NCBI GenBank assembly: GCA_964512835.1
Contig: CAZELA010000001.1
Coordinates: 41,372 to 105,371, forward strand
Origin: an uncultured Candidatus Saccharibacteria bacterium
GTDB lineage: Bacteria > Patescibacteriota > Minisyncoccia > Phycocordibacterales > UBA2100
DNA length: 64,000 bases
Reading direction: 5' to 3'
The notes under the pieces are model-generated. The model did not search any database, was not told the DNA's origin, and was given only the letters and a program-made list of their open reading frames with translations. Of this stretch, positions 1-32,412 are shown piece by piece. Each line of letters starts with the position of its first letter. Positions within the stretch are counted from its first letter, which is position 1. The position numbers and the translations under genes are program-made.

Positions 1-4
1 GCTC

Positions 5-697
5 TTGAACAGGATCCGGGTCATGATCGCGGGCTTCGTGATCAAGCGCGCGAAACGCGTGCGCGTCGTATCGGACGCCGTCGCTGCGTCGATCAAAAAG
101 ACGTACGGCGCAAAGATCGATGTGTCGGTACTGCCGATATTCGTCGATCTCTCACGCTTCGCGACCGCCAAGCCGGATATGACGACGTCGCAGCAGTTCC
201 TCAATTTCCCGTACAAAGCGCTCGTGGTGTCGAGACTGGAACCCGAGAAGAATGTCGCGCTTGCGATCAATGCGTTCAAAGAAAGCGCTCCGGAGGACGC
301 GTGCCTGATCATTCTCGGCGAAGGAAGCGAGTACACTGCGCTCGAGCGACTTGTCACAAAACTGGGACTCGATGCGCGCGTATTCTTCGAGGGGTTCAAG
401 GACCCGGCCCCGTATTATGCGCTCTGCGACATACTGCTCGTACCGTCGGTATACGAAGGCTACGGCCAGGTAATCATCGAAGCGCTCGCCGCGCACAAAC
501 CGGTTCTCTCGACCGACGTAGGTATCGCACGGCAGAGCGGGGCAATCATTGCTGCACCTCAGGAGTTCGCGTCTGCGCTCAAACAGTGGTTCGCGAACGG
601 TCCGAAGAGCGCAGCGCTCACAAATTATCCCTACCCGTCCGTGGATGAGTATGTGCGCCTCTACTGTGACGATATTGCGAGTGTAAAAAGCAAATAG
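5..697 (+). CDS. Glycosyltransferase family 1 (GT4-like), C-terminal part; 5' end lies upstream of window
   Basis: ORF runs in frame from the window edge. Contains the GT1 C-terminal signature EGYGQVIIEALAAHKPVLSTDVG (E-x7-E-type motif of GT-B retaining transferases). Confidence 0.7.
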   Translation: MNRIRVMIAGFVIKRAKRVRVVSDAVAASIKKTYGAKIDVSVLPIFVDLSRFATAKPDMTTSQQFLNFPYKALVVSRLEPEKNVALAINAFKESAPEDACLIILGEGSEYTALERLVTKLGLDARVFFEGFKDPAPYYALCDILLVPSVYEGYGQVIIEALAAHKPVLSTDVGIARQSGAIIAAPQEFASALKQWFANGPKSAALTNYPYPSVDEYVRLYCDDIASVKSK

Positions 698-725
698 ACC
701 GCTCGTTCGAGCGGTCTATGAAAGA

Positions 726-1486: not shown

Positions 1487-2395
1487 TTGCGCCCTATGGC
1501 ACATGCACATTCGAAAAAAGGACCGCTGATCGGATTCGTCGGGCAGGGATACGTAGGAGGAAGCTATGCAAACAATTTCGAGAAGCGCGGCTTCTCTGTG
1601 GTGCGATACTCGCTCGAACCAAAATATATTCAGAATAAAGAGGCGATTGCAGCGTGCGACATCGTATTCGTTGCTGTGCCGACCCCGACTACACCCAAGG
1701 GATTTGATTATTCCATCGTTGAAGCAGGACTGAGACTCGTCGGTCCCGGTAAGACCGCCGTCGTAAAGTCGACTCTTTTGCCCGGTACGACAAAACTGCT
1801 GCAAAAGAAATTCCCGAAGATCGCCGTACTCTGCTCACCTGAATTTTTGAGTGTTGCCTCCGCGCAGCAGGATGCGGACGAACCGTTCTCAAACATCATC
1901 GGTGTGCCGGGCAACGGAAAGAAATTCCGTGATGCTGCGGAAGCCGTGCATCGCGTATTGCCGAATGCGCCGTTCTCCCACATCTGCTCCAGTGAAGAGG
2001 CGGAGATGATTAAGTACGCACACAACATCAGCGGATTCATGCAGGTAGTCACGTTCAATGCGCTCTATGATCTTGCTAAGAGCGTCGGCGCAGACTGGAA
2101 GAACATCTATCCGGCAGTGATAGCAGACCCGATGATATCGAACCGCTATTCGAATCCCGTGCATAAAAGCGGACGTGGGGCAGGAGGGGCGTGCTTCATC
2201 AAGGATTTTGCCGCTTTCGCGAAACTCTACAAACAGACCGTCGGGAAAAAAGAAGGAGTCGCCTTTCTGAAGGCCGCGGAGAAGAAGAACATCATGCTGC
2301 TCGTCGGAACGAACAAAGACATGCCGTTGTTGGAGGGTGTATACGGTAAGGGTATTCACAAACTGAAAAAGTCCGCCCGGGCCCCGAAAAAATAG
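1487..2395 (+). CDS. Short UDP-glucose/GDP-mannose 6-dehydrogenase-family protein (NAD-binding and central catalytic domains only)
   Basis: GFVGQGYVGG Rossmann motif. Also CSPEFL, IKYAHN and the GRGAGGACFIKD catalytic-Cys motif typical of UDPGDH. Ends at 302 aa with no C-terminal UDP-binding domain. Confidence 0.6.
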   Translation: MRPMAHAHSKKGPLIGFVGQGYVGGSYANNFEKRGFSVVRYSLEPKYIQNKEAIAACDIVFVAVPTPTTPKGFDYSIVEAGLRLVGPGKTAVVKSTLLPGTTKLLQKKFPKIAVLCSPEFLSVASAQQDADEPFSNIIGVPGNGKKFRDAAEAVHRVLPNAPFSHICSSEEAEMIKYAHNISGFMQVVTFNALYDLAKSVGADWKNIYPAVIADPMISNRYSNPVHKSGRGAGGACFIKDFAAFAKLYKQTVGKKEGVAFLKAAEKKNIMLLVGTNKDMPLLEGVYGKGIHKLKKSARAPKK

Positions 2396-2396: not shown

Positions 2397-3425
2397 ATGC
2401 GTCTCCTGATCGTCACACAGGCGGTCGATCAGGATGATCCGGTACTCGGTTTTTTTCACCGCTGGATCGAAACGCTTGCGGCACAGGCAGAGCACGTGCA
2501 CGTGATCTGTCTCAAAGAGGGTAGTCACGCGTTGCCTCAAAACGTTGTCGTACATTCGCTCGGTAAAGAAGGCGGCCGCTCGCGTATGAAATACATGAGC
2601 CGGTTCTACACGTACCTGTGGTCCCTCCGGGGTGAATATGATGCTGTCTTTGTGCACATGAATCAGGAGTACGTATTGCTCGGCGGCTTGATCTGGAAAC
2701 TTCTCGGAAAGAAACTGGTCCTCTGGCGAAACCATAAAATCGGGTCGTGGCGGACACGTATCGCGTGTGCGATCGCGGACCACGTGTGCTACACGTCGCC
2801 GGCTGCGTATGTGGCGAAGGCGAACAACGCGGTCATCATGCCGATAGGTATCGATACCGATGCGTTCGCTCCTCGTGAGTCGCCGGTACCGCGATCGATA
2901 CTCTTCCTCGGACGCCTCGATCCGGTAAAGAATGTACACGTATTCATAGGTGCACTTACGCAGCTCTACGAAGCGGGTGTTACGTTCACGGCGGCGATAT
3001 ACGGTTCACCGACCGATCCGAAGTCGATGTATGCACATGACGTACGAAATCAGGCGGCCGTGCTCGCACTGGAAGGCGTGATAACCGTCCACGAGGCAGT
3101 GAGTAACGATGAGGCGGCAAAACTTTTTACGCGCTACGATTTGTACGTGAACCTCACGCCGTCCGGTAGTTTCGATAAGACTATCGGTGAAGCAATGTCT
3201 GCGGGGGCCGTAGTCGTTGCCATGAATGATGCGGTGCGGCCGGTACTTCCACCGGAGATCTTTGTGACGGACGAAACATCCGAGGCTGCGGCCCGCGCGA
3301 TACGGAATGCCCTTGATCTCCCGGCTGATGTACGCGAACGCGTTACGACCGTCTCGCGTCGATATATTCACGAAGATCATTCGCTTGCAAAACTCGCTCA
3401 ACAGCTCATGCCGATGCTTGGCTAG
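2397..3425 (+). CDS. Glycosyltransferase family 1 (GT4)
   Basis: 342 aa. FLGRLDPVKNVHVFIGAL and GEAMSAGAVVVA C-terminal GT1 motifs. Starts 2 nt after the previous stop. Confidence 0.7.
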   Translation: MRLLIVTQAVDQDDPVLGFFHRWIETLAAQAEHVHVICLKEGSHALPQNVVVHSLGKEGGRSRMKYMSRFYTYLWSLRGEYDAVFVHMNQEYVLLGGLIWKLLGKKLVLWRNHKIGSWRTRIACAIADHVCYTSPAAYVAKANNAVIMPIGIDTDAFAPRESPVPRSILFLGRLDPVKNVHVFIGALTQLYEAGVTFTAAIYGSPTDPKSMYAHDVRNQAAVLALEGVITVHEAVSNDEAAKLFTRYDLYVNLTPSGSFDKTIGEAMSAGAVVVAMNDAVRPVLPPEIFVTDETSEAAARAIRNALDLPADVRERVTTVSRRYIHEDHSLAKLAQQLMPMLG

Positions 3426-4216
3426 GTGCGGTGGGCGTAAATGAATTTATACGGCGCAGGTGCGCGTGATACGCGGTAGCCTTGAGCGACCAGTAGGCGA
3501 TCCAGCTCTTCCGGCTCGTGACCGTCGACGCGATGCCACTGCAGGAGTATTGCATCGATACGCTTGAACTCATCGTTACTGAGACTCCCGAGAATCTCGT
3601 ATTCGGCTCCCTCGCAGTTCATTTTCAGAACATCACATTTTGTGACCGCATATTCATTGAAAAAGTCGGACAATGTGACACAGGGAACAACTGCTCCCAC
3701 GATGAGGCCGCGATTTTCGCGATCGAAGAGCGAGCTCGATACGCCGCCGTGCGTGTCCTCGTATGTCTGTCGTTCGCCCGCGGTACCGGCTACACCTTTT
3801 TCTATACAGGTAATGCGATCTGACAAATCGTTTGCCGCAACGCTTTTTTCCAAATATTGAAAAACTTCGTGGTTGAACTCAAATGCGTAGATGTGCGCTC
3901 CGGGCTTTCGGAGGGCGGCGTAGATCGCGTAGGTGCCGATGTGAGCACCGACATCCAAAATGACGGGGGAATCACCGGAGAGTGCCGCGGGATCGCCGTA
4001 GACTTTGTCGACCCAAACCGCTGTAAGGTCGTCGATGCCCCATCCCTGATTCGAAGCGATATAAACCGGTCCGGAGCGCATGCGCAGATGCGTATCGCCG
4101 CTAAAAATGCGGATACGGAACTTCTGCAGAAAAAGCAGCGGCCAGTTGGATAGCAGCTGGTAGGTGCGAGCGAGCCACTGCACGAGTAGGCGGATACGGT
4201 GTATGAGTGTTCTCAT
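3422..4216 (-). CDS. FkbM-family SAM-dependent methyltransferase
   Basis: LDVGAHIGTYAIYAA...YAFEFNHEVFQYL (Methyltransf_21/FkbM signature). Start chosen at the Met whose ATG overlaps the upstream GT2 stop (ATGA at 4213-4216). The annotated longer ORF extends to 4411. Confidence 0.65.
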   Translation of the reverse strand: MRTLIHRIRLLVQWLARTYQLLSNWPLLFLQKFRIRIFSGDTHLRMRSGPVYIASNQGWGIDDLTAVWVDKVYGDPAALSGDSPVILDVGAHIGTYAIYAALRKPGAHIYAFEFNHEVFQYLEKSVAANDLSDRITCIEKGVAGTAGERQTYEDTHGGVSSSLFDRENRGLIVGAVVPCVTLSDFFNEYAVTKCDVLKMNCEGAEYEILGSLSNDEFKRIDAILLQWHRVDGHEPEELDRLLVAQGYRVSRAPAPYKFIYAHRT

Positions 4217-5058
4217 GCGGTGTGGGGGATGCTGAAGAGTTTTGCGAACATGACACGCGTTGCGAGCCACGTAGTAACGATCAGATATTTGAATCTCCAC
4301 AGCTCGTACGATACGGGTAGTTTGTTTCCCCGCGAGATCAGTCGGACACGAAGGAATCGGAGTGTGAAGAGCGCGAGCTGAGCGCTTGTGTGCAGGACCG
4401 CGTACGCCCATTTTCGTGGCGTTATCGAATTGCGGTAGTGGCGTTCGTCCCAGTCCAGTGCTCGCTTCAGACGCTTGCCGTCAAAATCCTCGTATGTGTC
4501 GAACATGGGTACGTACATGACGTTTTTCATAATGCCGACCGGCTCACCCTCGTTGACGACAACGCGCTCGTGCGTCATTTTGGTGTAACCGCCGATCGCA
4601 TCGCGTCGGAAAAATCGGATCTGACGATTGGGATACGTGATCGTGTCGTCGATAATCTCGCCTCGCCAGATATATTTGCGGGGAATCTTGTAAATCCGGT
4701 ATTTCGGGTCGGGATCGGCGACGATCGCGCGTATCTCTTCGATCGCCTCCGGCGAGAGGAATTCATCGGAGTCCAGTCGGAAGTGCCACTGTTCAAGCGA
4801 ATGGTTTACGCACGTGGTACGCGCCACGCCGAAGTCCGTAATTCGTTGCATCGGCTCGTCGGTCTCGATCTGTTTCGTGACACGTGCACCGAGTGATCGG
4901 GCGACTTCCTGCGTTCCGTCGGTCGAATTACCGTCGCATATGAATTTGTCGGAAAAATCAGCGACACTTTTCAATGCACGAGGAAGGTCGGCGGCGCTGT
5001 TGAGCGTCAAAATGCCTACCGATGCGCGTATGGTCTCGCGAGACATGGTACAAACCAT
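4213..5058 (-). CDS. Glycosyltransferase family 2
   Basis: N-terminal GILTLNSAADLPRALKSV...DGNSTDGT (GT2 DxD-type fold), 281 aa. Confidence 0.7.
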   Translation of the reverse strand: MVCTMSRETIRASVGILTLNSAADLPRALKSVADFSDKFICDGNSTDGTQEVARSLGARVTKQIETDEPMQRITDFGVARTTCVNHSLEQWHFRLDSDEFLSPEAIEEIRAIVADPDPKYRIYKIPRKYIWRGEIIDDTITYPNRQIRFFRRDAIGGYTKMTHERVVVNEGEPVGIMKNVMYVPMFDTYEDFDGKRLKRALDWDERHYRNSITPRKWAYAVLHTSAQLALFTLRFLRVRLISRGNKLPVSYELWRFKYLIVTTWLATRVMFAKLFSIPHTA

Positions 5059-5101
5059 ACCGTATTATTGCCGTTCAAACGAGTCGGGGTATCATGTGCG
5101 G

Positions 5102-5824
5102 ATGTCTCAGTCGTCTGTGCGCTCTTCGATCGTTATTCCCGCGCACAACGAGGCGGAAAATCTCGTAATACTCATTCCGAATCTTGCGCGGGCGCTCGCA
5201 TCGCGTAGCGAAGAAAGCGAGATCATTATTGTCGACAATGCATCGAACGACCGTACCCGTGACGTCATTGCGGACTTCCAGAAGACCATGCCGCGGCTCC
5301 GGGTTGTGCCTGAACCGATCATGGGATACGGGAGAGCGGTGCTTACAGGGTTGCGTGCGGCGAGCGGCGACGTGATCGGTATCATACGGGCTGATAATCA
5401 GGAAAAGCCGGAAGATCTCGTCCGTATGCTGGAGTCGCGCGATAGCAGCGGTGTCGACTTTTACAAAGCGATCCGAATGCACCGTTTGAATGACGGCTTG
5501 AAGCGCGTGATTATCAGTAGGGTATACAACGCCCTGTTCAAGATGCTGTTCGGTCTCCGCTCGACCGACCTGAACGCGACACCGAAAGTATTCATCCGCA
5601 AATATCTTGAGGCGGCACAGCTCGAATCGCTGGACTGGTTCATCGATGCGGAAATGGTCATAAAGGCCGAACGGCTCGGATTTACCGTCGCGGAAATGGG
5701 AATCGAGTATCAGCCCCGGCTCAAAGGGTCCTCGAACGTGCGTCTGAAACATGTGTTTGAATTTCTGGGCAACATGCTATCTTGGTACCGACGCGAACGT
5801 CATGGCAAACTTTTGGCGCAATAA
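5102..5824 (+). CDS. Glycosyltransferase family 2 (dolichyl/polyprenyl-phosphate sugar synthase-like)
   Basis: SIVIPAHNEAENL...IIVDNASNDRT...GYGRAV motifs. Start set at internal Met 5102 (MSQSS) downstream of the divergent GT2. The long upstream extension has no homology signal. Confidence 0.65.
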   Translation: MSQSSVRSSIVIPAHNEAENLVILIPNLARALASRSEESEIIIVDNASNDRTRDVIADFQKTMPRLRVVPEPIMGYGRAVLTGLRAASGDVIGIIRADNQEKPEDLVRMLESRDSSGVDFYKAIRMHRLNDGLKRVIISRVYNALFKMLFGLRSTDLNATPKVFIRKYLEAAQLESLDWFIDAEMVIKAERLGFTVAEMGIEYQPRLKGSSNVRLKHVFEFLGNMLSWYRRERHGKLLAQ

Positions 5825-6827
5825 GAACGTTTTCATAACCGGTGGCAACGGATTTTTGGGAGGTCACCTCACAAAGACACTCATCGAGCATGGTGCGAAA
5901 CCTGTGGTTCTCGTCTACGAGGAAAATCCGGGCGGTATTTTTGACGCGGAGCTCGCAAAAAAGGCGACCGTCGTCCGGGGAGACATCCGAAATCTCGCAT
6001 TAATGGACGAGATGCTGCGGTGGCACAATATTGATGTCGTCTACCATCTTGCGGCACAGGCGATCGTGGACCAGGCCATCGATGATCCTCTGGAGACGTT
6101 CGAGATCAATATGCAAGGCACGTGGAATATTCTTGAGGCCTGCAAACGAAATCCTCGCGTCGAACGAATCATCGTCGCCTCGTCAGATAAAGCCTACGGT
6201 CATCATGATCAGCTGCCGTATGCTGAACATTCTCACAGTCTGAAAGCGGCGTACCCGTATGAAGTCTCGAAAGCTGCTGCTGATATGATCACGCAGACAT
6301 TTCATAAGACCTTCGGCACGCCGGTATGCATTACGCGGTGCGCCAACCTCTACGGGCCGGGCGACATGAAAATGAACCGCTTGATCCCGCGCACCATATA
6401 CCAGCTCCACACAAACAAACCGCCCGTAATCCGCGACACGGGAAGCTCGCTGCGCGATTACCTGTTCGTCGAAGATGCTGCCGAGGCATACCGAATGCTC
6501 GCAGAGCAGATGGACGAATCCATGTACGGAGAGGCATTCAATTTTTCAACGAATCAGCCGCTGTCCGTCGCTGAGGCGATCAAGATCATGTCGCGCGAGA
6601 TGAAAAAGAGCATCAAGCCGAAAGTTGTTCAGACGCACGGCATGGAGATCCGTCACCAGTACGCGGCATATGATAAGGCCGAGCGCCTACTCGGGTGGAG
6701 GCCGACACATGACTTTGTCGCAGGCATCCGAAAAACCATTCCGTGGTATCGGAAATACATAGAATCGACGCTCAAGTCGAAGATCCGTGATGTCAAAAAG
6801 CAATCGCGAAAAGCGGTACGAAAATAA
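5802..6827 (+). CDS. CDP-glucose 4,6-dehydratase-like NAD-dependent dehydratase (RfbG/DdhB-like)
   Basis: N-terminus FWRNKNVFITGGNGFLGGHL resembles the RfbG FW-x-GK-x-VF-VTG-x-TGFKG motif. YEVSKAAAD is the Y-x-x-x-K catalytic dyad. ~340 aa. Confidence 0.6.
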   Translation: MANFWRNKNVFITGGNGFLGGHLTKTLIEHGAKPVVLVYEENPGGIFDAELAKKATVVRGDIRNLALMDEMLRWHNIDVVYHLAAQAIVDQAIDDPLETFEINMQGTWNILEACKRNPRVERIIVASSDKAYGHHDQLPYAEHSHSLKAAYPYEVSKAAADMITQTFHKTFGTPVCITRCANLYGPGDMKMNRLIPRTIYQLHTNKPPVIRDTGSSLRDYLFVEDAAEAYRMLAEQMDESMYGEAFNFSTNQPLSVAEAIKIMSREMKKSIKPKVVQTHGMEIRHQYAAYDKAERLLGWRPTHDFVAGIRKTIPWYRKYIESTLKSKIRDVKKQSRKAVRK

Positions 6828-7716
6828 GAAAGTCCTTGTTACGGGGGCCGACGGTCTGATCGGTCGGGCGCTCGTCGCACGTCTCTCCGGAGATGGTGCT
6901 GTGGTTCATGCGGCCCGCCGTACTGACGCGGATCTCACGGATGTCGCGCAGACAGAGGCGATGCTGCGGGCCTTTTCGCCGGACATTGTGTTCAATACTG
7001 CTGCCCGTATCGATATGAGTCGCGACCGTGCGCATATCGACGATATTATTGAGGGTACCTACGGTATTGCACGCAATGTTTTGCGGGCAGCAGAGATCTC
7101 CGGCGTAAAAAAATTCGTCCAATTCGGGACGATCGAAGAGTACGGATCAAACGAAGCGCCGTTCGTCGAGACGATGCGTGAGTCACCGATTTCCGCGTAT
7201 TCGTTGGGGAAAACAATGGCCACACACGAAGCACTGCTGCTTTCAAAGATCTCAGATATGAAGGTGTGCGTCGTGCGTCCGGCAGCGACGTTCGGACCGG
7301 GCAAGCGTGTCGGAATGCTCGTGCCGAACTTCATACGTGCGGCGCTCAGCGGCACAGATTTTAATATGAATGCAGGGGAGCAGGAGCGGGACTTCATATT
7401 TGTGGATGATGTCGCGGAGGCGTCGCTGCGCGCTGCACTCAGCGACCGGACCGACGGCGAGATCATCAATGTCGGATCAGGTATCGGTATGACAGTGCGC
7501 GGGTTCGTCGAGTCTTTGAACGAGGCGATGGGAAACCCGATCGCCGTCCATTTCGGCGCAGAGCCGTATCGGATCAACGACACCATGCGTTTTTTCATGA
7601 ATATAGACAAAGCGAAGAGACTGCTTTCATGGGAGCCCGAAGTGGCGCTGTCGGAAGCGCTGAGAATCACGGTCGAATGGTACCGGGCGAACGCGGATAT
7701 TTTCGGGGCGTCCTGA
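6787..7716 (+). CDS. NAD(P)-dependent epimerase/reductase (SDR, CDP-/GDP-sugar 4-reductase-like)
   Basis: VLVTGADGLIGRALVARL Rossmann motif, YSLGKTMAT (Y-x-x-x-K), 309 aa. Sits between the 4,6-dehydratase and the E1-like gene. Confidence 0.6.
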   Translation: MMSKSNREKRYENKKVLVTGADGLIGRALVARLSGDGAVVHAARRTDADLTDVAQTEAMLRAFSPDIVFNTAARIDMSRDRAHIDDIIEGTYGIARNVLRAAEISGVKKFVQFGTIEEYGSNEAPFVETMRESPISAYSLGKTMATHEALLLSKISDMKVCVVRPAATFGPGKRVGMLVPNFIRAALSGTDFNMNAGEQERDFIFVDDVAEASLRAALSDRTDGEIINVGSGIGMTVRGFVESLNEAMGNPIAVHFGAEPYRINDTMRFFMNIDKAKRLLSWEPEVALSEALRITVEWYRANADIFGAS

Positions 7717-23486: not shown

Positions 23487-24866
23487 ATGAAGACGATATT
23501 TCTCTCCGTGTATGACGGCGACACTGAAAAGAATGTGTTGCGTACCGGTACGTTTCCGTTGTTGAAAGCATCGGGACATCGGATTGTTCTACTGATCCGC
23601 GGTGACGATCGTCTCGCGTACTATAAAAGGGAATTCGAGGAGGGGAGTGTATTCGTGGAATCGCTCCCCGTTGCGACAACGGCCGCGGAGCGGTTTTGGT
23701 ACTTTGTCGGGTGGAATACGCTCCCGACGCGTGCCGCGGAGATTCGGCGGCACATGTATCTTGCGCGAGGGTGGCCCCGATCGCGTTATCTCTTTGGGCG
23801 GGCGCTCGGTTTTCTGGGACAGTTCCGTGTGTGGCGTGAATGTTTACGAATGCTCTATGGCGCTATGCCTGACACGTATGCAAGCGCTTTATTCGAAAAG
23901 TACCGACCCGACATACTCTTTGCGCCGGGAATGTTCTCTCCGGAGGACTGCCGACTATTGCGTCAGGCGAAGCGCCGCAGCGTGAAAACGGTCGCAACGG
24001 CCAAGAGTTGGGATGTGTTGACGACAAAAGCGTTCACGAGAGTCAAAGCTGACAGGCTTCTGGTATTCAACGAATTCAACCGTCAGGAAGCGATTGAGCT
24101 GGGTGATTACCCGCCTGCCCACGTCGTTGTGACGGGTTTCCCGCAGTTCGATGCGTACGCACACGCAGAGCTATTTTCGACGCGCGAGGATTTTTTTGCA
24201 CGGCTCGGCTTGGATCCCGCGAAGAAGCTCGTGTGTATCGCGGTTCCCGGCGACTGGAAAACGCCGTACACGAAACAGATCATGGCAGAGCTTGACCGTC
24301 GTATCGAAAACGGCGCGATCCGAAAACCGGTCCAGGTCCTCGCACGTTTCCATCCGAAGTATCCCGATGCGGCAGAAGGTTTGAAACTGAAGCATTTTGT
24401 TTTCAATCGACCCGGTACGCACCTCTCTGCCACGAAGGAATTTGCGATTGATGTCGGAGTCTCGGGGACCTTTGCGTGGACGTTCACCGACGCGGATATT
24501 CGCCATCTGGCCGACACGATGAAATACAGCGACGTCGTAATCAATACAGAATCCACGCTTACTTTGGATGCATCCGCGAACGATACGCCGGTGATCCTGA
24601 TCGGATATGACGGTGATGAACAGGTGCCGTACTGGGATTCCGTGGCGCGCATCTATGAGCGCGAGCATTACACGCATGTGACAGATACGGGCGCCGCGCC
24701 GCTCGTTACGGATCACGATGGGCTTGTCGCGGCGATCAATACATTCCTGGATGATCCCGAATATAAGCGAGCCGAGAGGGAATCGTTGAAAAAAGACATG
24801 CTGTTCAGGATTGACGGCAAAGCGGCAGAGCGAGTTGTAGGGACCATACTCCAGTTGGTGGGGTAA
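23487..24866 (+). CDS. GT-B-fold protein, possibly CDP-glycerol glycerophosphotransferase (TagB/TagF)-like
   Basis: 459 aa. Weak resemblance of LVCIAVPGDWKTPY to the TagF YAPTWR region. Located in the glycan locus. Confidence 0.3.
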   Translation: MKTIFLSVYDGDTEKNVLRTGTFPLLKASGHRIVLLIRGDDRLAYYKREFEEGSVFVESLPVATTAAERFWYFVGWNTLPTRAAEIRRHMYLARGWPRSRYLFGRALGFLGQFRVWRECLRMLYGAMPDTYASALFEKYRPDILFAPGMFSPEDCRLLRQAKRRSVKTVATAKSWDVLTTKAFTRVKADRLLVFNEFNRQEAIELGDYPPAHVVVTGFPQFDAYAHAELFSTREDFFARLGLDPAKKLVCIAVPGDWKTPYTKQIMAELDRRIENGAIRKPVQVLARFHPKYPDAAEGLKLKHFVFNRPGTHLSATKEFAIDVGVSGTFAWTFTDADIRHLADTMKYSDVVINTESTLTLDASANDTPVILIGYDGDEQVPYWDSVARIYEREHYTHVTDTGAAPLVTDHDGLVAAINTFLDDPEYKRAERESLKKDMLFRIDGKAAERVVGTILQLVG

Positions 24867-24910: not shown

Positions 24911-25975
24911 TCATGCCACACGAGCACTGTGCTCGTGTGCGAATACGGCGCCGAGCATTGCGGCGAGCGATTCCTGTGCAGACATGCGCCTCACCGCTGT
25001 CGATTGATGTGAGCGCAGTATGGTCGGATTGTCCGCAATGATGAGCATTGCCGTCGCGAGCTCCACCCATGTCTCGTTGTAGATATCGAGCACTGCGCCG
25101 GAGTCGTAGAAATAGCCGAACCAGCTCCCGGTGTCCTTCTTCAGCCAGTCCTGCGACGAGTCTTCGAAGTAGTCGATCACAGGTATCAATTGCGCAAGCG
25201 CGTGCACACGCAATGACGTGCCGTTGATCACAAGATCGACGCCGGGTAGCAAATCATCACCCGTTCCGTCGTACCAGTACAGCTGCACGTGGTGTGCTTC
25301 GGCAATCGTCGTGAGGTGCGCGTACCGCTCCTGCTCCGCCTTGTCGCCGGGGTGGCGGGAGAGAACGACGAGTCGATTCTCCCAATGCAGGCCGGCAGCG
25401 CGGATCGTGGCTTTCCACACGGTGATGTTGTGATCGGGGTCTTTCGTGCCCGGAGCAAACACGACGTACTGTCGTTCGTTTGCGTGCACGAGTGCTCGCG
25501 CCTGATCACGGTCCTTCGGTTCAAAGTACGTTGCCCACTGCGGATTTCCCGTAGCGGTCACCTGCGCGGCAGGGAACGTCGTCGTTGCAGCAATCATCTC
25601 ATCCTCGCTGACCACCAGCACGAAGTTCGCCTTGAGGCGAAACTCGGCAAAGTGATCCCGCCGGTATGCGCCGTGTGCGTCGGCGAAGAAGCCGAACCGC
25701 TTACGGTGTGTGAGACAGAATCGAGCGGCGTCGATTTCGACGCCGGCGTTCTGTTCGGATGACATGCCGATCACAACGACGTCTGCGTTCTTCACTTTTT
25801 CCTCGAGTCCGAAGAGGCTTGGTCCGAGGATCGAGCCTCCGTCGAGAAGGATGAAATCGGTGCTGAACCCGCTTTCGGCCGCATGGCTTATCAGCATGCG
25901 CAGCGCCTTTGACGGGGTCGTGTCGTGGGCGACACACAAGAGCGTAGGGGCTTTGGTGCGGTCCTGTTGAGCCAT
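24911..25975 (-). CDS. Hypothetical protein (GT-B-like alpha/beta; NeuC/PseG-type accessory role possible)
   Basis: 354-aa ORF with alternating alpha/beta pattern. The only minus-strand gene beside the neuA/neuB-like pair. No diagnostic motif. Confidence 0.3.
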   Translation of the reverse strand: MAQQDRTKAPTLLCVAHDTTPSKALRMLISHAAESGFSTDFILLDGGSILGPSLFGLEEKVKNADVVVIGMSSEQNAGVEIDAARFCLTHRKRFGFFADAHGAYRRDHFAEFRLKANFVLVVSEDEMIAATTTFPAAQVTATGNPQWATYFEPKDRDQARALVHANERQYVVFAPGTKDPDHNITVWKATIRAAGLHWENRLVVLSRHPGDKAEQERYAHLTTIAEAHHVQLYWYDGTGDDLLPGVDLVINGTSLRVHALAQLIPVIDYFEDSSQDWLKKDTGSWFGYFYDSGAVLDIYNETWVELATAMLIIADNPTILRSHQSTAVRRMSAQESLAAMLGAVFAHEHSARVA

Positions 25976-26808: not shown

Positions 26809-26867
26809 GGCAACGATTTGTTGATTTGTATAGTTGACGAATTGTGCATCCACGGCACAATTTGCAC

Positions 26868-28397
26868 ATGACTACTTCAAGCGGCAAGTTCGACTTTACC
26901 GACCTTTTTACCCTGGAGATGGCGAATAACCATCAGGGCTCCGTTGATCACGGCCTTAAGATCATCGACCAGTTCTCGAAAGTTGTTAAAAAGCACGGCG
27001 TGAAAGCCTGCATCAAACTCCAGTTTCGCGATCTGGATACGTTTATTCATCCGGCAGACATAAAGAAGACCGACAATAAGCACGTGCCGCGCTTCCTCTC
27101 CACGAAACTCACGCGAAAGGATTTCAAAGTACTCGTCGATGCCACCCGAAAGGCCGGGCTCGTGACGATGGCAACTCCGTTTGACGAGGCCTCTGTTGAA
27201 ACCGTTAAAGAGTTGAACGTCGATATTTTGAAGATCGCATCGTGCTCCGCGAAGGATTGGCCGCTTTTGGAGAAAGCCGCAGCTGCCGGTAAACCGATGA
27301 TTGTGTCGGTGGGTGGAATGACGATTGAAGAGATCGACCGCTTGGTCTCGTTCCTCGATCACCGGTATGTACACTTTGCGCTGATGCACTGCGTCGCAAT
27401 TTACCCGACGCCGAACAATAAATTGAACCTCGGACACATCGAGATCCTCCGCGAGCGTTATCCCGGTATCATGATCGGATTCTCGACCCACGAAGAACCG
27501 GACAACATGGCGGCTATTCAGATCGCCTATGGTAAGGGTGCGCGGATTTTCGAGCGACATGTGGGGGTTCCGACGAAGACGATTTCGCTCAATGCGTATT
27601 CCTCGACTCCGGAACAGATCGACCGTTGGATAGAGGCATGGAAAGTCGCACGAGACGCCGAAGGCCCTGCAACATGGGAATCCGATCCTAAAGAAGATGC
27701 GGATCTCGCGTCCCTCAAGCGTGGAGTCTTTGCAAAGAAAGCGATCAAGAAGGGTCAGTCGCTCAAGCGTTCAGACGTGTATTTTGCATTCCCGTACCGC
27801 GAAGGCCAGCTCTCCAGCGGTGAATTCAAAGAGGGAATGGTCGTTTCCGACAAGGCGTACAAGATCGACGAAGCGATAGCGCACGCAACAAGGGATTTCA
27901 CACCGACCGCGCAGGATCTCGTGTATCACCCGATCCACGAAGTAAAAGCGATGCTCAACAAGGCAGGCATTGCGCTCCCGGTCGATTTTTCGATCGACCT
28001 CTCGCATCACTACGGACTCGAAAACTTCCGCAAGGTCGGAGCCGTCATCATCGATGTCATTAACCGCGAGTACTGCAAGAAGATCATCGTGCAGCTTCCC
28101 GGGCAGGAACACCCGTATCATCACCACCTGCAAAAGGAAGAGGCGTTCCATGTGCTCTCCGGTGTGATGGAGTTGGAGCTTGAGGGCCGCCGAATGACGT
28201 TGCATCCGGGCGATGTTGCCGTCGTGCAACGCGGCGTGAAGCACCGCTTCTGGACCGACACGGGCGTTATATTCGAAGAGGTCTCGTCGACGCACTTCAA
28301 CAATGATTCGTTCTACGAGGATACCGCCATCAGTAACTTGCCGCGCGAAGCACGCAAGACAAAACTCTCAAATTGGGGTCGCCACCATTTCGACTAA
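26868..28397 (+). CDS. neuB: N-acylneuraminate/nonulosonate synthase (NeuB family) with C-terminal cupin extension
   Basis: EMANNHQGSVDHGLKIIDQ (NeuB TIM-barrel N-terminus) and KPMIVSVGGMTIEEI. A SAF-like segment is followed by an extra ~120-aa cupin-like tail (PGQEHPYHHH...HPGDVAVVQRGVKHRF). Confidence 0.7.
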   Translation: MTTSSGKFDFTDLFTLEMANNHQGSVDHGLKIIDQFSKVVKKHGVKACIKLQFRDLDTFIHPADIKKTDNKHVPRFLSTKLTRKDFKVLVDATRKAGLVTMATPFDEASVETVKELNVDILKIASCSAKDWPLLEKAAAAGKPMIVSVGGMTIEEIDRLVSFLDHRYVHFALMHCVAIYPTPNNKLNLGHIEILRERYPGIMIGFSTHEEPDNMAAIQIAYGKGARIFERHVGVPTKTISLNAYSSTPEQIDRWIEAWKVARDAEGPATWESDPKEDADLASLKRGVFAKKAIKKGQSLKRSDVYFAFPYREGQLSSGEFKEGMVVSDKAYKIDEAIAHATRDFTPTAQDLVYHPIHEVKAMLNKAGIALPVDFSIDLSHHYGLENFRKVGAVIIDVINREYCKKIIVQLPGQEHPYHHHLQKEEAFHVLSGVMELELEGRRMTLHPGDVAVVQRGVKHRFWTDTGVIFEEVSSTHFNNDSFYEDTAISNLPREARKTKLSNWGRHHFD

Positions 28398-28399
28398 CC

Positions 28400-29065
28400 A
28401 TGAAGGTTGTCGTATTTGATTTCGACGGGGTGCTTATCCCTTCAGAGGAGATTAAGCAGAACGGGTATCGTTGGATGTTCAGTGAATTCGGCGAAGATGT
28501 ACCGGAAGAGGCGATACGACTCGCGCGCGAGGAGTTTTCGAACGCGCGCGGTAACCGCTACGACATCATCCGGTCTATATGCGCTCGTATCGGCAAGACC
28601 GATATCGAGTCCGATGTCACGAAATATGCGGAGCGATTCGGCGATGTGGTCCGGAACAAGCTCGCAGCGTTCACGGTCGAGCCAAACGTGCGGGCCATGC
28701 TCGAGCGTGCGGGGAAAGGCGGTCCGCTCTACATCAACTCGAACACCCCTGACGAGCCGCTCAAAGAAACGCTGCGCTCGCTCGGCATCGCGGATCTGTT
28801 CAAGGGGGTTCGCGGGTCGAGTGACGGGAGTTCAAAGGCCGATCGTCTCCACGACATCGCGCGTGCCGAGGGAGTAACGGCGAGTGACTTGGTGTTTATC
28901 GGCGACGGCGAGGGTGATCGCGCAGCTGCCGAGATGGCCGGTTGCGAATTCATCGGTATCGCAACAGACCTGAACGGTTGGAAGACCGGCTCCGAGTTCA
29001 CGGTGCTTGGATCCGTCTCTGAGTTCGGGATATCAAAGCGCGGCGGATTTGAGCGCATGGTATAA
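28400..29065 (+). CDS. HAD-superfamily hydrolase/phosphatase
   Basis: VVFDFDGVL (motif I DxDGV) and FIGDGEGD (motif IV). Confidence 0.6.
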   Translation: MKVVVFDFDGVLIPSEEIKQNGYRWMFSEFGEDVPEEAIRLAREEFSNARGNRYDIIRSICARIGKTDIESDVTKYAERFGDVVRNKLAAFTVEPNVRAMLERAGKGGPLYINSNTPDEPLKETLRSLGIADLFKGVRGSSDGSSKADRLHDIARAEGVTASDLVFIGDGEGDRAAAEMAGCEFIGIATDLNGWKTGSEFTVLGSVSEFGISKRGGFERMV

Positions 29066-29095
29066 AACAGTACAACTAATTTTTTTTTGATTCTT

Positions 29096-30163
29096 ATGCA
29101 TGTAAAAGTCTACGGAGCAGGTTCTATCGGTAATCATTTAACTCAGGCATCGCGTCGTATGGGGTGGGACGTGACTGTCGTTGACAGGGATCAGAAAGCG
29201 CTCGATCGCATGAAGCAGGACATCTACCCGACCCGCTACGGCGCGTGGGACGAGACGATCAGGCAATATGTCGCGGGCTCTGAGCCGAAAGGTGAGTACG
29301 ACATCGTCATGCTGGGTACACCGCCGAATGTGCGCATTCAGGTGGCGCTCGCGGCGCTCAAGGAAAAGCCGAAACTTATGCTGCTTGAAAAGCCGCTCTG
29401 CGGACCTGACGCAAAAGATCTTAAAAAACTTATTACGCTCGCAAAGAAACAAAAGACAATACTGCTCGTCGGTTATGATCACGGTGTTGCAGAGTCGGTT
29501 CAGTTCATCGTCTCAATGCTCGATAAGAAGCCGGTCGGCGAAATCCTCACGCTCGATGTTGAATTTCGTGAACACTGGGAAGGTATTTTCAAGGCGCACC
29601 CGTGGCTCTCGGGACCGAAAGATACGTATCTCGGATATATCGGTCGCGGAGGGGGTGCGTCCGGTGAGCATTCACACGCGCTGCATTTGTGGCAGTATCT
29701 TGCCCGTGTTGCCGGGCTCGGCACGTGGAAAGAGGTCAGTGCTGTATACGATATGAAGAAGAGCGGCGCGACCGAATACGACGCAATCGCCTCATTCACA
29801 TTCATGACCGACAAAAAGAAGGTGGGTCGTGTTATTCAGGACGTCGTAACGAAACCGACACGCAAATGGGCTCGGATCCAGGGAGAGAGCGGGTACATTG
29901 AGTGGTATTGCGGCGGCGATCCCCGCGGCGATGTCGTCAAATGGAAGACGTTGCGGGACGAGAGCGAGCAGGTTCGGGTTTTCGACAAAAAAAGGCCGGA
30001 TGACTTTTACCGAGAGATGCTCCACATCGACGATATTCTGCATAAGCGGGTGAAATACTCAGACTCGCCGATCAATATTGAAAGTGGCATCAGGGTCATA
30101 GAGGTGCTCAAAACAGCATATCCGAAGCGTGGTACGCCGCGCTCCGCCATTAAAAAGCTCTGA
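29096..30163 (+). CDS. Gfo/Idh/MocA-family NAD(P)-dependent oxidoreductase
   Basis: VKVYGAGSIG N-terminal Rossmann motif and LLEKPLCG (the EKP motif of the family). Confidence 0.5.
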   Translation: MHVKVYGAGSIGNHLTQASRRMGWDVTVVDRDQKALDRMKQDIYPTRYGAWDETIRQYVAGSEPKGEYDIVMLGTPPNVRIQVALAALKEKPKLMLLEKPLCGPDAKDLKKLITLAKKQKTILLVGYDHGVAESVQFIVSMLDKKPVGEILTLDVEFREHWEGIFKAHPWLSGPKDTYLGYIGRGGGASGEHSHALHLWQYLARVAGLGTWKEVSAVYDMKKSGATEYDAIASFTFMTDKKKVGRVIQDVVTKPTRKWARIQGESGYIEWYCGGDPRGDVVKWKTLRDESEQVRVFDKKRPDDFYREMLHIDDILHKRVKYSDSPINIESGIRVIEVLKTAYPKRGTPRSAIKKL

Positions 30164-30177
30164 CCGCAAGGGGGTGG

Positions 30178-32412
30178 GTGCGTGATACACTGGGCACCAT
30201 TATGACCCTTGAAAAGATCCTCCGAGGAGTTGCGATCGCGTCAGTGTTTGCCCTCCCGTTTATCTGCCTTATTGTTGCATCGTCACTCTTTTTCCCGTTC
30301 ATCACGGGTAAGAATTTTGCGTTCCGTATCATTACCGAGGTCGGGTTTGGTGCCACACTCGCGCTCATGTTCGTGGCCCGAGAATACCGGCCGAGACGCT
30401 CTCTGGTATTGATTGCACTGAGTGTTTTTACATTTGCGATCCTGATCTCGGATCTTTTCGGTGCGTATCCGTCCAAAAGTCTTTGGAGTAATTATGAGCG
30501 CATGGACGGATGGGTTACGCTCATCCATCTCTTGATGTATGTGATCGTTGCGGCATCCGTTATGCGCACCGAACGAATCTGGCGATGGCTCATGTGGACC
30601 TCGCTGGGAGTGTCGGTGTACCTGACGATCTACGGCCTGCTCCAGATCGCGGGCGTTACGGCGCTTGGTCAGGGCGGTGCCGGTGGCCTTGGTGCTCGTA
30701 TCGACGCAACCTTCGGAAATCCGATCTATTTCGCTGTCTACATGCTGTTCCATGTCTTCATCGCAGCTATGTTGTGGGCACAGGCATGGGTGGAGCGCGG
30801 TCCGGGCAAGCGCATGACGGTATCGTTCGTTTACGGTGCGATCATCATCGGCGACACATTCATGCTGCTCGCGACTGCGACCCGAGGTACGATCCTTGGG
30901 CTTATAGGCGGCGCACTGCTTGCAGCCGTACTGGTCCTTCTGCAGGCGAATCACTCCAAGACAGCGTGGCGAGCAGCGGCGGCAGGTGTCGTTGCGATCC
31001 TTGTGCTCATCGGCGGTTTTTGGCTCATCCGTGACGCATCGTTCGTGAAGAAGATCGGCTTCCTGCAGCGTATGGCAACCATATCGACGACCGATAACAC
31101 CGTAAAGGCGCGATTCTATAACTGGGGCATGGCATGGAAGGGCGTACAAGAGCGCCCGATATTCGGCTGGGGCCAGGAGAACTACGCGATCGTATTCGAC
31201 AAATACTATGATCCGCGCATGCACGGGCAGGAACCGTGGTTCGACCGCGTCCACAACATAATCTTTGACTGGCTGGTTGCCGGAGGATTTGTGGGACTTA
31301 TCGCGTACCTCTCGATCTTTGCCGCAACGCTCTTTGTGATCTGGCGCAGCGGAGCCTTCACTGTCGCCGAACGTGCGCTTATTACGGGGTTGCTCGCCGG
31401 GTACTTCATCCACAATTTCTTCGTATTCGACAACGTGACGAGTTACATCCTCTTTGGGACCGTACTCGCGTTTGTTATCTACCGTCACACGCAGTTCGAA
31501 AAGACGAAGCCGGTCATGTCATTCGGTACACTTTCCGAAAGTGCGCTACCGTTTGTCGCCATTGCGGCGGTCATACTGGTTTGGGGTGTCGCATGGGGCG
31601 TGAACGGTCGTCCGATGGCGGCAAACCGGGCCCTTCTTTCAGCACTCGCTACGCAAGGTAATCTGCAGGCGACATTCGAAGGGTTCGAGAAGGCGATATT
31701 CTACGGTACGTTCGGGAGCCAGGAGGCTCGCGAGCAGTTGGCGCAGGGTTCGTCGCAGATCGCGCAAGCGAATATTCCGAACGAGGTTAAACAACAATTC
31801 TACAATCTTGCGACCGAACAGATGACGATTCAGGCCGCGGAATCTCCGATGGATGCACGATTCCCGTTGTTCCTTGGTGTGTTGTACGATTCCTTCCAGG
31901 ATTACAAGAACGGACAGATCGCGCTCGAAAAGGCACAGGAACTTTCCCCGAAGAAACAGTCGATCATGTACGAGCGCGCACAGAATGCGGAGCTGCAGGG
32001 TCAGACAGAGCGTTCCATCGATTTGTACAAACAGGCGTTCGAACTCGACGAGAACCTGACCGATCCTCGCATTGTGTATGCTGCGGTGCTGATCCGAAAT
32101 AGCCGCGCTGCGCAGGCGGACGCTATTCTTGCGCCGATCATACCGACCGGTCAGGCAGCCGATCAGCGCATTCTCGCGAGCCTTGTCTCAATCAAGGACT
32201 ATGCACGCATCGCGCCGATATGGAATGCGTACATCGCAAAACACCCCGAAGACGTGCAGGGATTCTTCACGCTCGCAGCCGTCTACTACCAACAGGGCGA
32301 CAAGGCGCGAGCTATATCGACCTTGCAGGATGCGGTCAAGGCGCACCCGGAAGTGAGCGGACAGGTCACCGAGATCATTCAAAAGATCCAGTCCGGTGCC
32401 GCGGTCAACTAG
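30178..32412 (+). CDS. O-antigen ligase/Wzy_C-domain membrane protein fused to C-terminal TPR repeats
   Basis: ~400-aa polytopic N-terminal part with a large loop (WGMAWKGVQERPIFGWGQENY) typical of O-antigen ligase/polymerase. C-terminal ~250 aa of TPR-like helices (YERAQNAELQGQTERSIDLYKQAFELD, YYQQGDKARAISTLQDAV). Confidence 0.65.
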   Translation: MRDTLGTIMTLEKILRGVAIASVFALPFICLIVASSLFFPFITGKNFAFRIITEVGFGATLALMFVAREYRPRRSLVLIALSVFTFAILISDLFGAYPSKSLWSNYERMDGWVTLIHLLMYVIVAASVMRTERIWRWLMWTSLGVSVYLTIYGLLQIAGVTALGQGGAGGLGARIDATFGNPIYFAVYMLFHVFIAAMLWAQAWVERGPGKRMTVSFVYGAIIIGDTFMLLATATRGTILGLIGGALLAAVLVLLQANHSKTAWRAAAAGVVAILVLIGGFWLIRDASFVKKIGFLQRMATISTTDNTVKARFYNWGMAWKGVQERPIFGWGQENYAIVFDKYYDPRMHGQEPWFDRVHNIIFDWLVAGGFVGLIAYLSIFAATLFVIWRSGAFTVAERALITGLLAGYFIHNFFVFDNVTSYILFGTVLAFVIYRHTQFEKTKPVMSFGTLSESALPFVAIAAVILVWGVAWGVNGRPMAANRALLSALATQGNLQATFEGFEKAIFYGTFGSQEAREQLAQGSSQIAQANIPNEVKQQFYNLATEQMTIQAAESPMDARFPLFLGVLYDSFQDYKNGQIALEKAQELSPKKQSIMYERAQNAELQGQTERSIDLYKQAFELDENLTDPRIVYAAVLIRNSRAAQADAILAPIIPTGQAADQRILASLVSIKDYARIAPIWNAYIAKHPEDVQGFFTLAAVYYQQGDKARAISTLQDAVKAHPEVSGQVTEIIQKIQSGAAVN

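Follow-up and report, generated by a model that had tools for sequence, protein, structure and literature searches.

Positions 1-32412 of the DNA analysed here, a 64,000-nucleotide stretch of contig CAZELA010000001.1 (the window; G+C content 51-58%), hold a real and fairly ordinary surface-glycan cassette made up of densely packed glycan-biosynthesis genes. With about even confidence, we take them to be what the window shows of a Wzx-dependent cassette from a Kaiserbacteria-like Patescibacterium, in which three membrane glycosyltransferases of fold C (GT-C1 to GT-C3) would decorate the glycan. The cassette is followed, after a gap, by the gene for a giant surface protein rich in STTS motifs. 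The order of the steps, the sugars and the role of the GT-Cs as decorators rather than as protein glycosyltransferases are what we infer from gene identities and gene conservation, which were observed directly.

The cassette comprises three GT4 and two soluble GT2 glycosyltransferases, a Wzx-type flippase, four methyltransferases (one FkbM-type, one TylF-type and two class I enzymes), an AsnB-type amidotransferase, an MBOAT acyltransferase with a neighbour that has a single transmembrane (TM) segment, and a TagF-like transferase. A short UDP-glucose-dehydrogenase-like protein is encoded as well, as are two sets of enzymes for sugar precursors. In the first, a DegT aminotransferase and a hexapeptide acyltransferase accompany two short-chain dehydrogenases/reductases (SDRs), one of them 4,6-dehydratase-like; the second consists of a NeuB-cupin fusion together with a cytidylyltransferase (CTP_transf_3), a HAD phosphatase and a GFO oxidoreductase. 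With the hexapeptide acyltransferase and the MBOAT protein, the cassette holds two acyl-transfer systems. Much of this content had been anticipated in a sequence-only reading of the window. Pfam searches agreed with its Wzx- and Wzy_C-type machinery (12120-13499 and, with tetratricopeptide repeats (TPR), 30178-32412), its four methyltransferases (3422-4411, 13511-14173, 14213-14941 and 19077-19847) and its two acetylation systems plus AsnB, which correspond to the hexapeptide acyltransferase, the MBOAT protein and the amidotransferase. Its GtrB/DPM1-like polyprenol-phosphate-sugar synthase was likewise confirmed, by full-length matches to ArnC and GtrB and by a TM hairpin. The same reading had counted three to four PMT/ArnT-like GT-C enzymes; three PMT_2 proteins were indeed found, but a fourth GT-C was ruled out, as the two unassigned open reading frames (ORFs) carry one and zero TM segments.

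Genes for nucleotide sugars, cytoplasmic glycosyltransferases, Wzx and methyltransferases are mixed in with the GT-C genes. Such an interleaved layout is that of GtrB/GT-C modules which decorate the glycan of their own cluster, as in the Gtr and streptococcal Gac/Scc systems. By analogy with Gtr and with streptococcal side-chain systems, the most economical reading is that the GT-Cs would add side-branch sugars to a lipid-linked or polymerised glycan. This is in agreement with the observation that the cassette content upstream of the Wzy_C-TPR gene varies between relatives while Wzy_C-TPR itself stays 52-79% identical, and with the terminator-like hairpin, 1.1-kb spacer and housekeeping genes that part the cassette from the giant gene.

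In the pathway that we propose, the dehydratase, DegT aminotransferase and hexapeptide acyltransferase would produce an activated sugar of the 4-amino-4,6-dideoxyhexose type in the cytoplasm, and the NeuB-cupin protein, HAD phosphatase and cytidylyltransferase would produce a CMP-activated nonulosonate or Kdn-like sugar. The GT4, GT2 and TagF-like transferases would then build a methylated and amidated oligosaccharide on a polyprenol carrier, and Wzx would flip it over the membrane. On the outer face, the three unrelated GT-Cs would add single sugars from polyprenol-phosphate sugars, the donor for at least one of them being made by an ArnC/GtrB-type synthase that is probably translationally coupled to GT-C2. 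There, the MBOAT protein and its partner would O-acylate the glycan. The single-TM protein encoded at 19844-20878 is likely the extracytoplasmic partner in question, an MBOAT protein with a single-TM partner being the usual arrangement for extracytoplasmic acylation of polysaccharides. Finally, the Wzy_C-TPR protein would end the pathway as the polymerase of the glycan or as the ligase that joins it to the wall, a lipid or a protein. Patescibacteria of this type are generally regarded as having neither an outer membrane nor lipid A.

Several points weigh against this interpretation. Within the window we saw no initiating phosphoglycosyl transferase, no chain-length regulator and no LCP-type wall ligase, although the left end of the window cuts the locus at position 1, so that its start lies outside. 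Neither did the window contain a GtrA- or ArnE/F-type flippase for the polyprenol-phosphate sugar. Furthermore, the neighbourhood of the large surface protein is kept down to 52% Wzy_C-TPR identity, which hints at some link between the glycan and the large protein. Members of the GT-C3 family are paired with a GT2-GtrA fusion in three related loci (L051, L052 and L053; L-numbers denote loci in other genomes), and no such fusion occurs within the window. At 6976-9255 of L053, a GT-C3-type protein and a GT2-GtrA protein form a two-gene module amid MurJ, LepA, HisRS and DsbA/B genes, outside any cassette. This pair resembles a minimal Gtr-like system on its own, the acceptor of which would have to come from elsewhere, and since it stands alone among housekeeping genes, the GT-C3 family needs no co-encoded glycan. 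Lastly, pairs of GtrB and a GT-C also glycosylate proteins directly (10.1101/2024.05.05.592596; PMC5856776).

The genes of the cassette and its neighbourhood were assigned with Pfam and NCBIfam:

5-697 (+): GT4 glycosyltransferase, C-terminal part (Pfam Glyco_trans_1_4, E 1e-25)
1487-2395 (+): short-form UDP-glucose/GDP-mannose dehydrogenase-like protein (Pfam UDPG_MGDP_dh and N domain; a 301-aa form occurs in L050)
2397-3425 (+): GT4 glycosyltransferase (Pfam)
3422-4411 (-): FkbM-type methyltransferase (Pfam Methyltransf_21, E 5e-21)
4213-5058 (-): soluble GT2 glycosyltransferase without a TM segment (Pfam Glycos_transf_2)
4814-5824 (+): GT2 glycosyltransferase (Pfam Glycos_transf_2, E 7e-23); the true start is probably near 5100, because the domain starts at residue 105
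5751-6827 (+): NDP-hexose 4,6-dehydratase-like SDR (Pfam Epimerase/GDP_Man_Dehyd; top NCBIfam model dTDP-glucose 4,6-dehydratase, below its cut-off)
6787-7716 (+): SDR epimerase/reductase (Pfam Epimerase, E 1e-42)
7738-8952 (+): DegT/EryC1-type sugar aminotransferase (Pfam, E 8e-78)
8942-10453 (-): GT-C1, 503 aa, at least 8 TM segments, FDEG motif after TM1 (Pfam PMT_2, 29.4 bits; hydropathy; motif)
10462-10938 (+): cytoplasmic hexapeptide-repeat acyltransferase (Pfam Hexapep)
10996-12123 (+): GT4 glycosyltransferase (Pfam)
12120-13499 (+): Wzx-type flippase, at least 9 TM segments (Pfam Polysacc_synt_3, Polysacc_synt)
13511-14173 (+): TylF-type O-methyltransferase (Pfam TylF, E 4e-30)
14213-14941 (+): class I S-adenosylmethionine (SAM) methyltransferase (Pfam Methyltransf_11)
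14938-16323 (+): GT-C2, 461 aa, all-helical, GDxxGY motif in loop 1 (Pfam PMT_2, 32.7 bits; structure model; Foldseek; alignment)
16320-17255 (+): predicted ArnC/GtrB/PgfS-type polyprenol-phosphate sugar synthase, GT2 domain and C-terminal TM hairpin (PDB sequence matches; NCBIfam; hydropathy)
17263-19125 (+): AsnB-type glutamine amidotransferase (Pfam Asn_synthase, E 1e-100)
19077-19847 (+): class I SAM methyltransferase (Pfam Methyltransf_11)
19844-20878 (-): single-TM protein (TM 33-51), no Pfam or NCBIfam match
20830-22338 (-): MBOAT membrane O-acyltransferase (Pfam MBOAT, E 2e-31)
22419-23483 (+): GT-C3, 354 aa, small form, GDYETY motif (Pfam PMT_2, 30.4 bits; start from P0142)
23487-24866 (+): TagF-like (Glyphos_transf) transferase (Pfam Glyphos_transf, E 6e-8; weak match to the NCBIfam BFO_1060 family)
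24911-25975 (-): conserved soluble protein, zero TM segments, no Pfam or NCBIfam family match; orthologs in L006 and L048
26014-26808 (+): CMP-sugar cytidylyltransferase (CTP_transf_3; Pfam, E 1e-23)
26844-28397 (+): NeuB-type synthase-cupin fusion (Pfam NeuB, E 8e-41; Cupin_2)
28373-29065 (+): HAD phosphatase (Pfam HAD_2)
29087-30163 (+): GFO/IDH/MocA oxidoreductase (Pfam)
30178-32412 (+): Wzy_C membrane protein with C-terminal TPR (Wzy_C-TPR), 744 aa, last gene of the cassette (Pfam Wzy_C, E 2e-20, and TPR families)
33531-36056 (+): SecA with all four SecA domains (Pfam; synteny)
36205-37758 (+): GatB (Pfam)
37828-38772 (+): 314-aa membrane protein with two HTH_17-like modules and TM 246-264 (Pfam HTH_17; hydropathy)
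39306-61487 (+): giant surface protein, 7393 aa (composition, repeat and domain analysis)

The product of 16320-17255 is predicted to be a polyprenol-phosphate sugar synthase, a GT2 enzyme of the GtrB/ArnC/DPMS type. Residues 2-306 of its 311 align to ArnC in the PDB (E 6e-61), where Synechocystis GtrB (E 3e-43) and an archaeal DPMS (E 8e-19) were matched as well, and hydrophobic segments at 234-286 correspond to the C-terminal TM hairpin. The NCBIfam models gave 176 bits for PgfS (E 1e-51) against an equivalog cut-off of 500, and 232 bits for ArnC against one of 529. The synthase gene overlaps the 3' end of the GT-C2 gene by 4 bases (14938-16323 and 16320-17255).

The three GT-Cs barely exceed the Pfam gathering score for PMT_2 (PF13231) of 26.1 bits, with 29.4 bits for 8942-10453, 32.7 for 14938-16323 and 30.4 for ORF 22341-23483, the true start of which (22419) is set by an identical database protein, P0142. 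GT-C2 has the GT-C fold in its AlphaFold2 (AF2) model, which is wholly helical, without a soluble domain, and of high confidence (predicted local distance difference test, pLDDT, 89.9; predicted template modelling score, pTM, 0.90). A Foldseek comparison of this model with the PDB returned GT-C enzymes in all but two of the top 33 matches at a probability of ∼1, including PglB, STT3, AglB, ArnT, PimE, ALG3, Pmt1/2/4 and EmbB, the two others being GPI-transamidase entries; the E-values were weak (1e-3 to 0.2) and the TM-scores 0.34-0.52. Residue D37 of GT-C2, within the GDxxGY motif directly after TM1, was invariant in an alignment of 19 sequences. Acidic motifs just after TM1 are also present in GT-C1 (FDEG) and GT-C3 (GDYETY), as seen in the single sequences, and these two proteins were identified by Pfam PMT_2 and hydropathy only.

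A finer placement of the GT-Cs was attempted and dropped. Structurally, oligosaccharyltransferases (OSTs), ArnT, PimE, ALG3 and PMTs rank together for GT-C2 with weak E-values, ArnT (E 1e-2, TM-score 0.35-0.40) scoring no better than the OSTs. The sequence search of the PDB returned no match for any of the three GT-Cs, no NCBIfam family was found for them, that of ArnT included, and they have no mutual similarity detectable at the level of BLAST, which makes an assignment to GT39 or GT83 impossible. As for GT39 (PMT) features, there was no match to PF02366, MIR or PMT_4TMC at E<=0.01, and a profile of the 19 GT-C2 sequences reached only yeast Pmt1 (E 0.022, over ∼110 residues).

The GT-Cs also differ in their distribution. 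GT-C2 has ∼9 orthologs at 41-48% identity, besides remoter relatives, the nearest named one being from Candidatus Kaiserbacteria, and no ortholog was found on the L047 or L048 contigs. The trio of GT-C2, ArnC and AsnB is sporadic and is missing from what can be seen of the cassettes in relatives with STTS giants. It is conserved in L006 and L008, where GT-C2, ArnC, AsnB, methyltransferase, TagF-like, cytidylyltransferase, NeuB, HAD, GFO and Wzy_C-TPR genes make up one block. The GT-C3 family is more widespread (∼54 members), and its orthologs adjoin Wzy_C-TPR in L047 and L048. Orthologs of the TagF-like protein are kept in L006, L008 and L048; this protein is possibly a CMP-sugar/nonulosonate transferase.

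The giant protein is the candidate substrate in the sequence-only reading, which had proposed a dedicated protein-glycosylation system acting on this fibre. Ser or Thr accounts for 29% of its 7393 residues. The motif STTS was seen 91 times, against 3.3 times expected from composition (a ∼27-fold excess), and TTS 110 times; the more than 100 STTS sequons reported before were thus an overcount. The STTS motifs lie in ten arrays between residues 620 and 4354 and are most commonly spaced by 15 residues (47 of the 90 spacings), with the consensus G-L-A-F-S-T-T-S-A-D/N-Y-W-x-S-x, in which STTS forms an invariant core and the aromatic positions are strongly conserved. Beyond the arrays, the protein has LVIVD propellers and a C-terminal immunoglobulin-like domain. 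Its N-terminus resembles an HTH_17 module, and its most hydrophobic segment, at residues 194-212, is signal-anchor-like, which makes export of the protein plausible. An AF2 model of one STTS array, built from a self-alignment of 12 arrays, showed beta strands at a pLDDT of 53.6, too poor to address whether STTS is exposed or buried. A literature search on the FSTTS repeat found nothing relevant.

Some further features of this gene and its surroundings were observed. GC skew is strongly negative, down to -0.27, over the repeat part of the giant gene (40001-56000). HTH_17/excisionase-like modules open both the giant protein (39306-39500) and the 314-aa protein (37828-38772; two copies), and in each a single hydrophobic segment follows them, an arrangement kept in L047, L048 and L051. 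For a giant surface protein to start with a domain that resembles cytoplasmic DNA-binding ones is unusual, and this start is retained in relatives. Immediately past the giant gene, 61532-62509 (-) encodes a protein of the class A beta-lactamase family (Beta-lactamase2, E 2e-32) with an N-terminal hydrophobic segment. Next to it lies an IS200/Y1-transposase-like gene (62551-63231, -) that recurs at varying positions in or beside the conserved block and beside other STTS loci (L011, L013, L022, L031, L049 and L051). It could drive rearrangement of surface genes.

Contrary to the earlier proposal, the cassette is not placed directly upstream of the giant gene. Between the Wzy_C-TPR gene and the giant gene lie 6.9 kb, with a 1.1-kb spacer that contains terminator-like hairpins (the one after Wzy_C-TPR at 32491-32512), secA, gatB and the HTH_17 gene. 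The GT-C genes are 16-29 kb from the giant gene, with secA and gatB in between. To examine STTS arrays more widely, one genome per species was scanned, which yielded 38 loci with an array, almost all from Patescibacteria (labelled Paceibacterota, Minisyncoccia, Nomurabacteria or 'Saccharibacteria'). When all window proteins were compared with these loci by tblastn, the order SecA, GatB, HTH protein and STTS giant proved widely conserved. The only glycan-locus protein detected in the flanks was the C-terminus of Wzy_C-TPR, in three close relatives, and the idea that such glycan genes generally accompany STTS genes was rejected. Complete STTS paralogs were found far from secA/gatB and without these glycan genes nearby (L012, L014, L026, L037, L039 and L040).

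Could the synthase and at least one GT-C nevertheless form a dedicated PMT/Pgf-type system for protein O-glycosylation, in which single sugars are added to the STTS motifs of the giant? We consider this decidedly unlikely. What stands of the earlier proposal are the enzyme identities and the capacity: the synthase is a full-length relative of ArnC, GtrB and PgfS whose gene overlaps that of GT-C2 by 4 bases, the GT-C fold was confirmed, with a weak profile match of GT-C2 to yeast Pmt1 (E 0.022), and STTS is ∼27-fold over-represented as the invariant core of a repeat. Pgf of Streptococcus mutans and GtrB with PgtC2 of S. pyogenes and S. pneumoniae O-glycosylate Ser/Thr-rich regions of surface proteins (10.1101/2024.05.05.592596; PMC5856776), and given these monoderm precedents the capacity is present in the locus. 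GT-C3 orthologs, moreover, occur in four of the four cassettes beside STTS giants (the window, L009 by near-identity, L047 and L048), while the STTS-less L050 shows no GT-C within 10 kb upstream; these genomes are essentially one clade, so that the co-occurrence amounts to about one independent observation.

Dedication to the fibre, in contrast, is unsupported, because the GT-C genes belong to a Wzx-type cassette and are separated from the giant gene by 16-29 kb and two housekeeping genes, and because GT-C2, with its ∼9 orthologs, is rare and missing from the L047 and L048 contigs, which keep STTS giants. Moreover, what is conserved is the set of Wzy_C-TPR, SecA, GatB, HTH protein and large protein, not the pair of GT-C and GtrB; the slot of the large protein is not always filled by an STTS protein (L050); and where the same genomes carry further complete STTS paralogs, the flanks of those are free of homologs of the glycan genes. 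The features that define GT39 (PF02366, MIR) are absent from the GT-Cs. The streptococcal substrates are disordered, whereas the STTS repeat has conserved aromatic residues and, at low confidence, beta strands in the AF2 model, and GT-C3 normally pairs in relatives with a GT2-GtrA fusion that is missing from the window.

The gene that closes the cassette is better conserved than its content. Wzy_C-TPR has 2980 detectable homologs of a constant length of ∼740 aa, and its identity across Kaiserbacteria and Paceibacterota is 52-79%. At least six genomes (the window, L009, L047, L048, L050 and L051) share the order of a variable glycan cassette, Wzy_C-TPR, SecA, GatB, the HTH protein and a variable large surface protein, and L049 keeps it as well, up to the end of its sequence after the HTH gene. 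Over the compared contexts (L009, L047-L051), Wzy_C-TPR identity falls from 97% to 52% and the large protein measures 1973-8310 aa. The giants of L047 and L048 bear STTS arrays; the protein in this slot in L050 has a classical signal peptide and Kelch-like repeats, without STTS arrays. In L049 and L051 the block contains additional, inserted genes. The order secA, gatB, (HTH protein) and large surface protein is kept even in distant Patescibacteria, with SecA down to 56% identity (L009-L046). Wzy_C-TPR is the core gene that closes the cassette. SecA is a member of the conserved neighbourhood and stands outside the glycan pathway. Giant Omnitrophota proteins have been reported with SecA-like domains (10.1101/2023.11.21.568195), and there may be a link between SecA and giant-protein export. 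An accessory SecA2 system for serine-rich repeat proteins (SRRP) was considered and rejected, as the window has no homologs of SecY2, Asp1-3 or GtfA/B and its SecA is full-length and encoded beside gatB.

This conservation bears on the acceptor of the glycan. Wzy_C-TPR might serve as an O-oligosaccharyltransferase (O-OTase) that transfers the polyprenol-diphosphate-linked oligosaccharide en bloc onto surface proteins, including the giant encoded four genes downstream, with the GT-Cs trimming or decorating the glycan; this alternative, which partly overlaps our preferred reading and differs in the acceptor, is a tentative one that we regard as rather less than probable. A Wzy_C-TPR that stays conserved while the cassette changes would fit a glycan-promiscuous ligase better than a repeat-unit-specific polymerase, Patescibacteria are generally understood to have no lipid A that could be the acceptor, and the order from cassette to large protein is kept in at least six genomes. 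Wzy_C followed by a C-terminal TPR is the architecture reported for the Paenibacillus alvei S-layer O-OTase WsfB and for PglL, and wsfA in the P. alvei cluster is a homolog of AsnB (PMC2943079). O-OTase genes often neighbour their targets (PMC3643930), and the SLCT-11 glycosylation locus of Clostridioides difficile lies beside secA2 and slpA (PMC6254364). On the other hand, PglL_A (PF15864) had no match in Wzy_C-TPR at E<=0.01, and no PDB sequence match was obtained outside the TPR part. A crude and not reliable hydropathy count (∼12 TM segments, three of them after the catalytic loop) puts the TPR in the cytoplasm. The block contains the housekeeping gene gatB and takes up insertions (L049 and L051), so its order may be inherited rather than functional, the slot protein varies, that of L050 being without STTS arrays, and STTS lies within an aromatic-rich 15-residue repeat that is not obviously a disordered linker. 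A literature search on Patescibacteria and O-antigen ligase found no study of the Wzy_C-TPR gene.

The reverse position would be that the cassette makes a wall or membrane polymer only, capsule- or teichoic-acid-like and polymerised by Wzy_C-TPR, and that only inherited gene order, without functional meaning, keeps it near the giant gene. We give this, too, limited credence and think it rather doubtful. TagF-like, Wzx, Wzy_C and MBOAT proteins and side-chain GT-Cs are, as is generally known, standard parts of Gram-positive wall-glycopolymer systems, the window offers no polymerase candidate other than Wzy_C-TPR, and the housekeeping and inserted genes within the conserved block are in concordance with mere inheritance. 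Wzy polymerases, however, normally diverge with the repeat unit, while Wzy_C-TPR remains 52-79% identical despite cassette change. No LCP ligase or chain-length regulator was seen within the window, and the order beside the large protein appears to outlast a divergence that usually erases unlinked gene order. If any protein is glycosylated, Wzy_C-TPR is a better candidate for the enzyme than the GT-Cs, because it has the WsfB/PglL architecture, because there is no lipid A, and because it is conserved amid a changing cassette and within a conserved secA/large-protein neighbourhood.

A more far-reaching version would have Wzy_C-TPR, perhaps with GT-C3, attach the cassette glycan to the STTS repeat at the Sec exit, so that the region would be a surface-fibre glycosylation island. 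This we consider unlikely. It starts from the architecture seen across Kaiserbacteria and Paceibacterota, where the fixed core (Wzy_C-TPR, SecA, GatB and the HTH membrane protein) has a hypervariable, exchangeable surface determinant on each side: the glycan cassette on one, the giant membrane-anchored protein on the other. If true, such an island would give episymbionts a glycan-coated, fast-diversifying attachment organelle, and the 15-residue STTS repeat would be a new bacterial O-glycosylation sequon. The conserved island architecture makes the glycoprotein hypothesis testable without establishing it.

The spacer between the cassette and secA contains conserved elements of its own. At 32436-32525, a conserved TATACT box precedes two hairpins and a T-rich tail, an element also found just after Wzy_C-TPR in L009, L047, L048 and L049; compensatory changes occur in 8 of the 30 predicted pairs over five genomes. 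From this sequence pattern, the element is a candidate ∼80-nt small RNA without an Rfam family. A tiny conserved lysine-rich ORF at 32761-32817 (-), MAKKKKTAKKAKKAKKRA, is near-identical in L009, L047 and L048, with a similar one in L049, and on the minus strand a terminator-like hairpin (32686-32715) lies 3' of it. A long G+C-rich hairpin at 33337-33420, with a half copy near 33198, stands ∼110 nt before the secA start, hardly varies among the window, L009, L047 and L048, and has Rfam matches at chance level only. A role as a leader or regulatory element of secA is possible. Rfam scans of the whole window and of the long spacer found no family, and the window contains no tRNA genes.

Among known systems, the cassette resembles three-component Gtr-type decoration (GtrA/GtrB/GtrX for the O-antigen of Shigella and Salmonella; GacI/GacL and Scc for side chains on streptococcal rhamnopolysaccharides; CsbB/YfhO and GtlA/GtlB for teichoic acids), with which it shares a GT2 synthase with a TM hairpin, outside-acting GT-Cs and genes embedded in or serving a glycopolymer pathway. 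It differs in having three unrelated GT-Cs per one visible synthase and no GtrA-type flippase within the window, although relatives carry GT2-GtrA fusions, and in its host, a Patescibacterium. With the Arn pathway (ArnB/ArnC/ArnT; aminoarabinose on lipid A) it shares ArnC as the best match of the synthase, and DegT, SDR and N-acyltransferase genes in the same locus; the donor could plausibly be polyprenol phosphate carrying an N-acylated amino sugar. Yet the ArnC score is far under the equivalog cut-off, the GT-Cs have no ArnT family match, the locus has no ArnA-type formyltransferase, and the organism should be without lipid A. Pgf of S. mutans (PgfS/PgfM1/PgfE/PgfM2) and GtrB/PgtC2 of S. pyogenes and S. 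pneumoniae are similar in combining a synthase with GT-Cs in a monoderm, with a Ser/Thr-rich protein nearby. Unlike in those systems, the synthase scores under the PgfS cut-off, the genes do not adjoin the candidate substrate, and the putative sites belong to an aromatic 15-residue repeat and not to a disordered tail.

As for systems that end in a ligase, the S-layer slg clusters of P. alvei and Geobacillus stearothermophilus and the C. difficile SLCT-11 cassette are comparable in their Wzy_C and TPR end (WsfB) and AsnB (wsfA) (PMC2943079), and SLCT-11 further in having secA and a large surface-protein gene nearby (PMC6254364). In the window, however, secA looks like the full-length housekeeping copy beside gatB, the 7393-aa surface protein forms a membrane-anchored fibre rather than an S-layer, and the O-OTase role of Wzy_C-TPR is putative. 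PglL-type O-OTases differ in that PglL_A is unmatched and that the candidate target is four genes from the Wzy_C-TPR gene. Accessory Sec (SecA2/SecY2) systems for serine-rich repeat (SRR) proteins differ in that the SecA of the window carries four SecA Pfam domains and that the window has no SecY2, Asp or GtfA/B. The cassette adds a further example to a known kind of system, with the conserved island architecture as the most interesting by-product.

Patescibacteria live attached to other microbes, and little is known of their surface molecules. This Kaiserbacteria-like lineage devotes ∼5% of its ∼0.6-Mb genome to a decorated glycan and a further 22 kb to a giant repeat protein. If the glycan is not on the fibre, the locus is a standard wall-glycan cassette, a catalogue entry and a warning on proximity-based substrate inference in tiny genomes. 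If the glycan does join the fibre, no glycoprotein adhesin system would have been described in the group before this one, and its sequon would be new.

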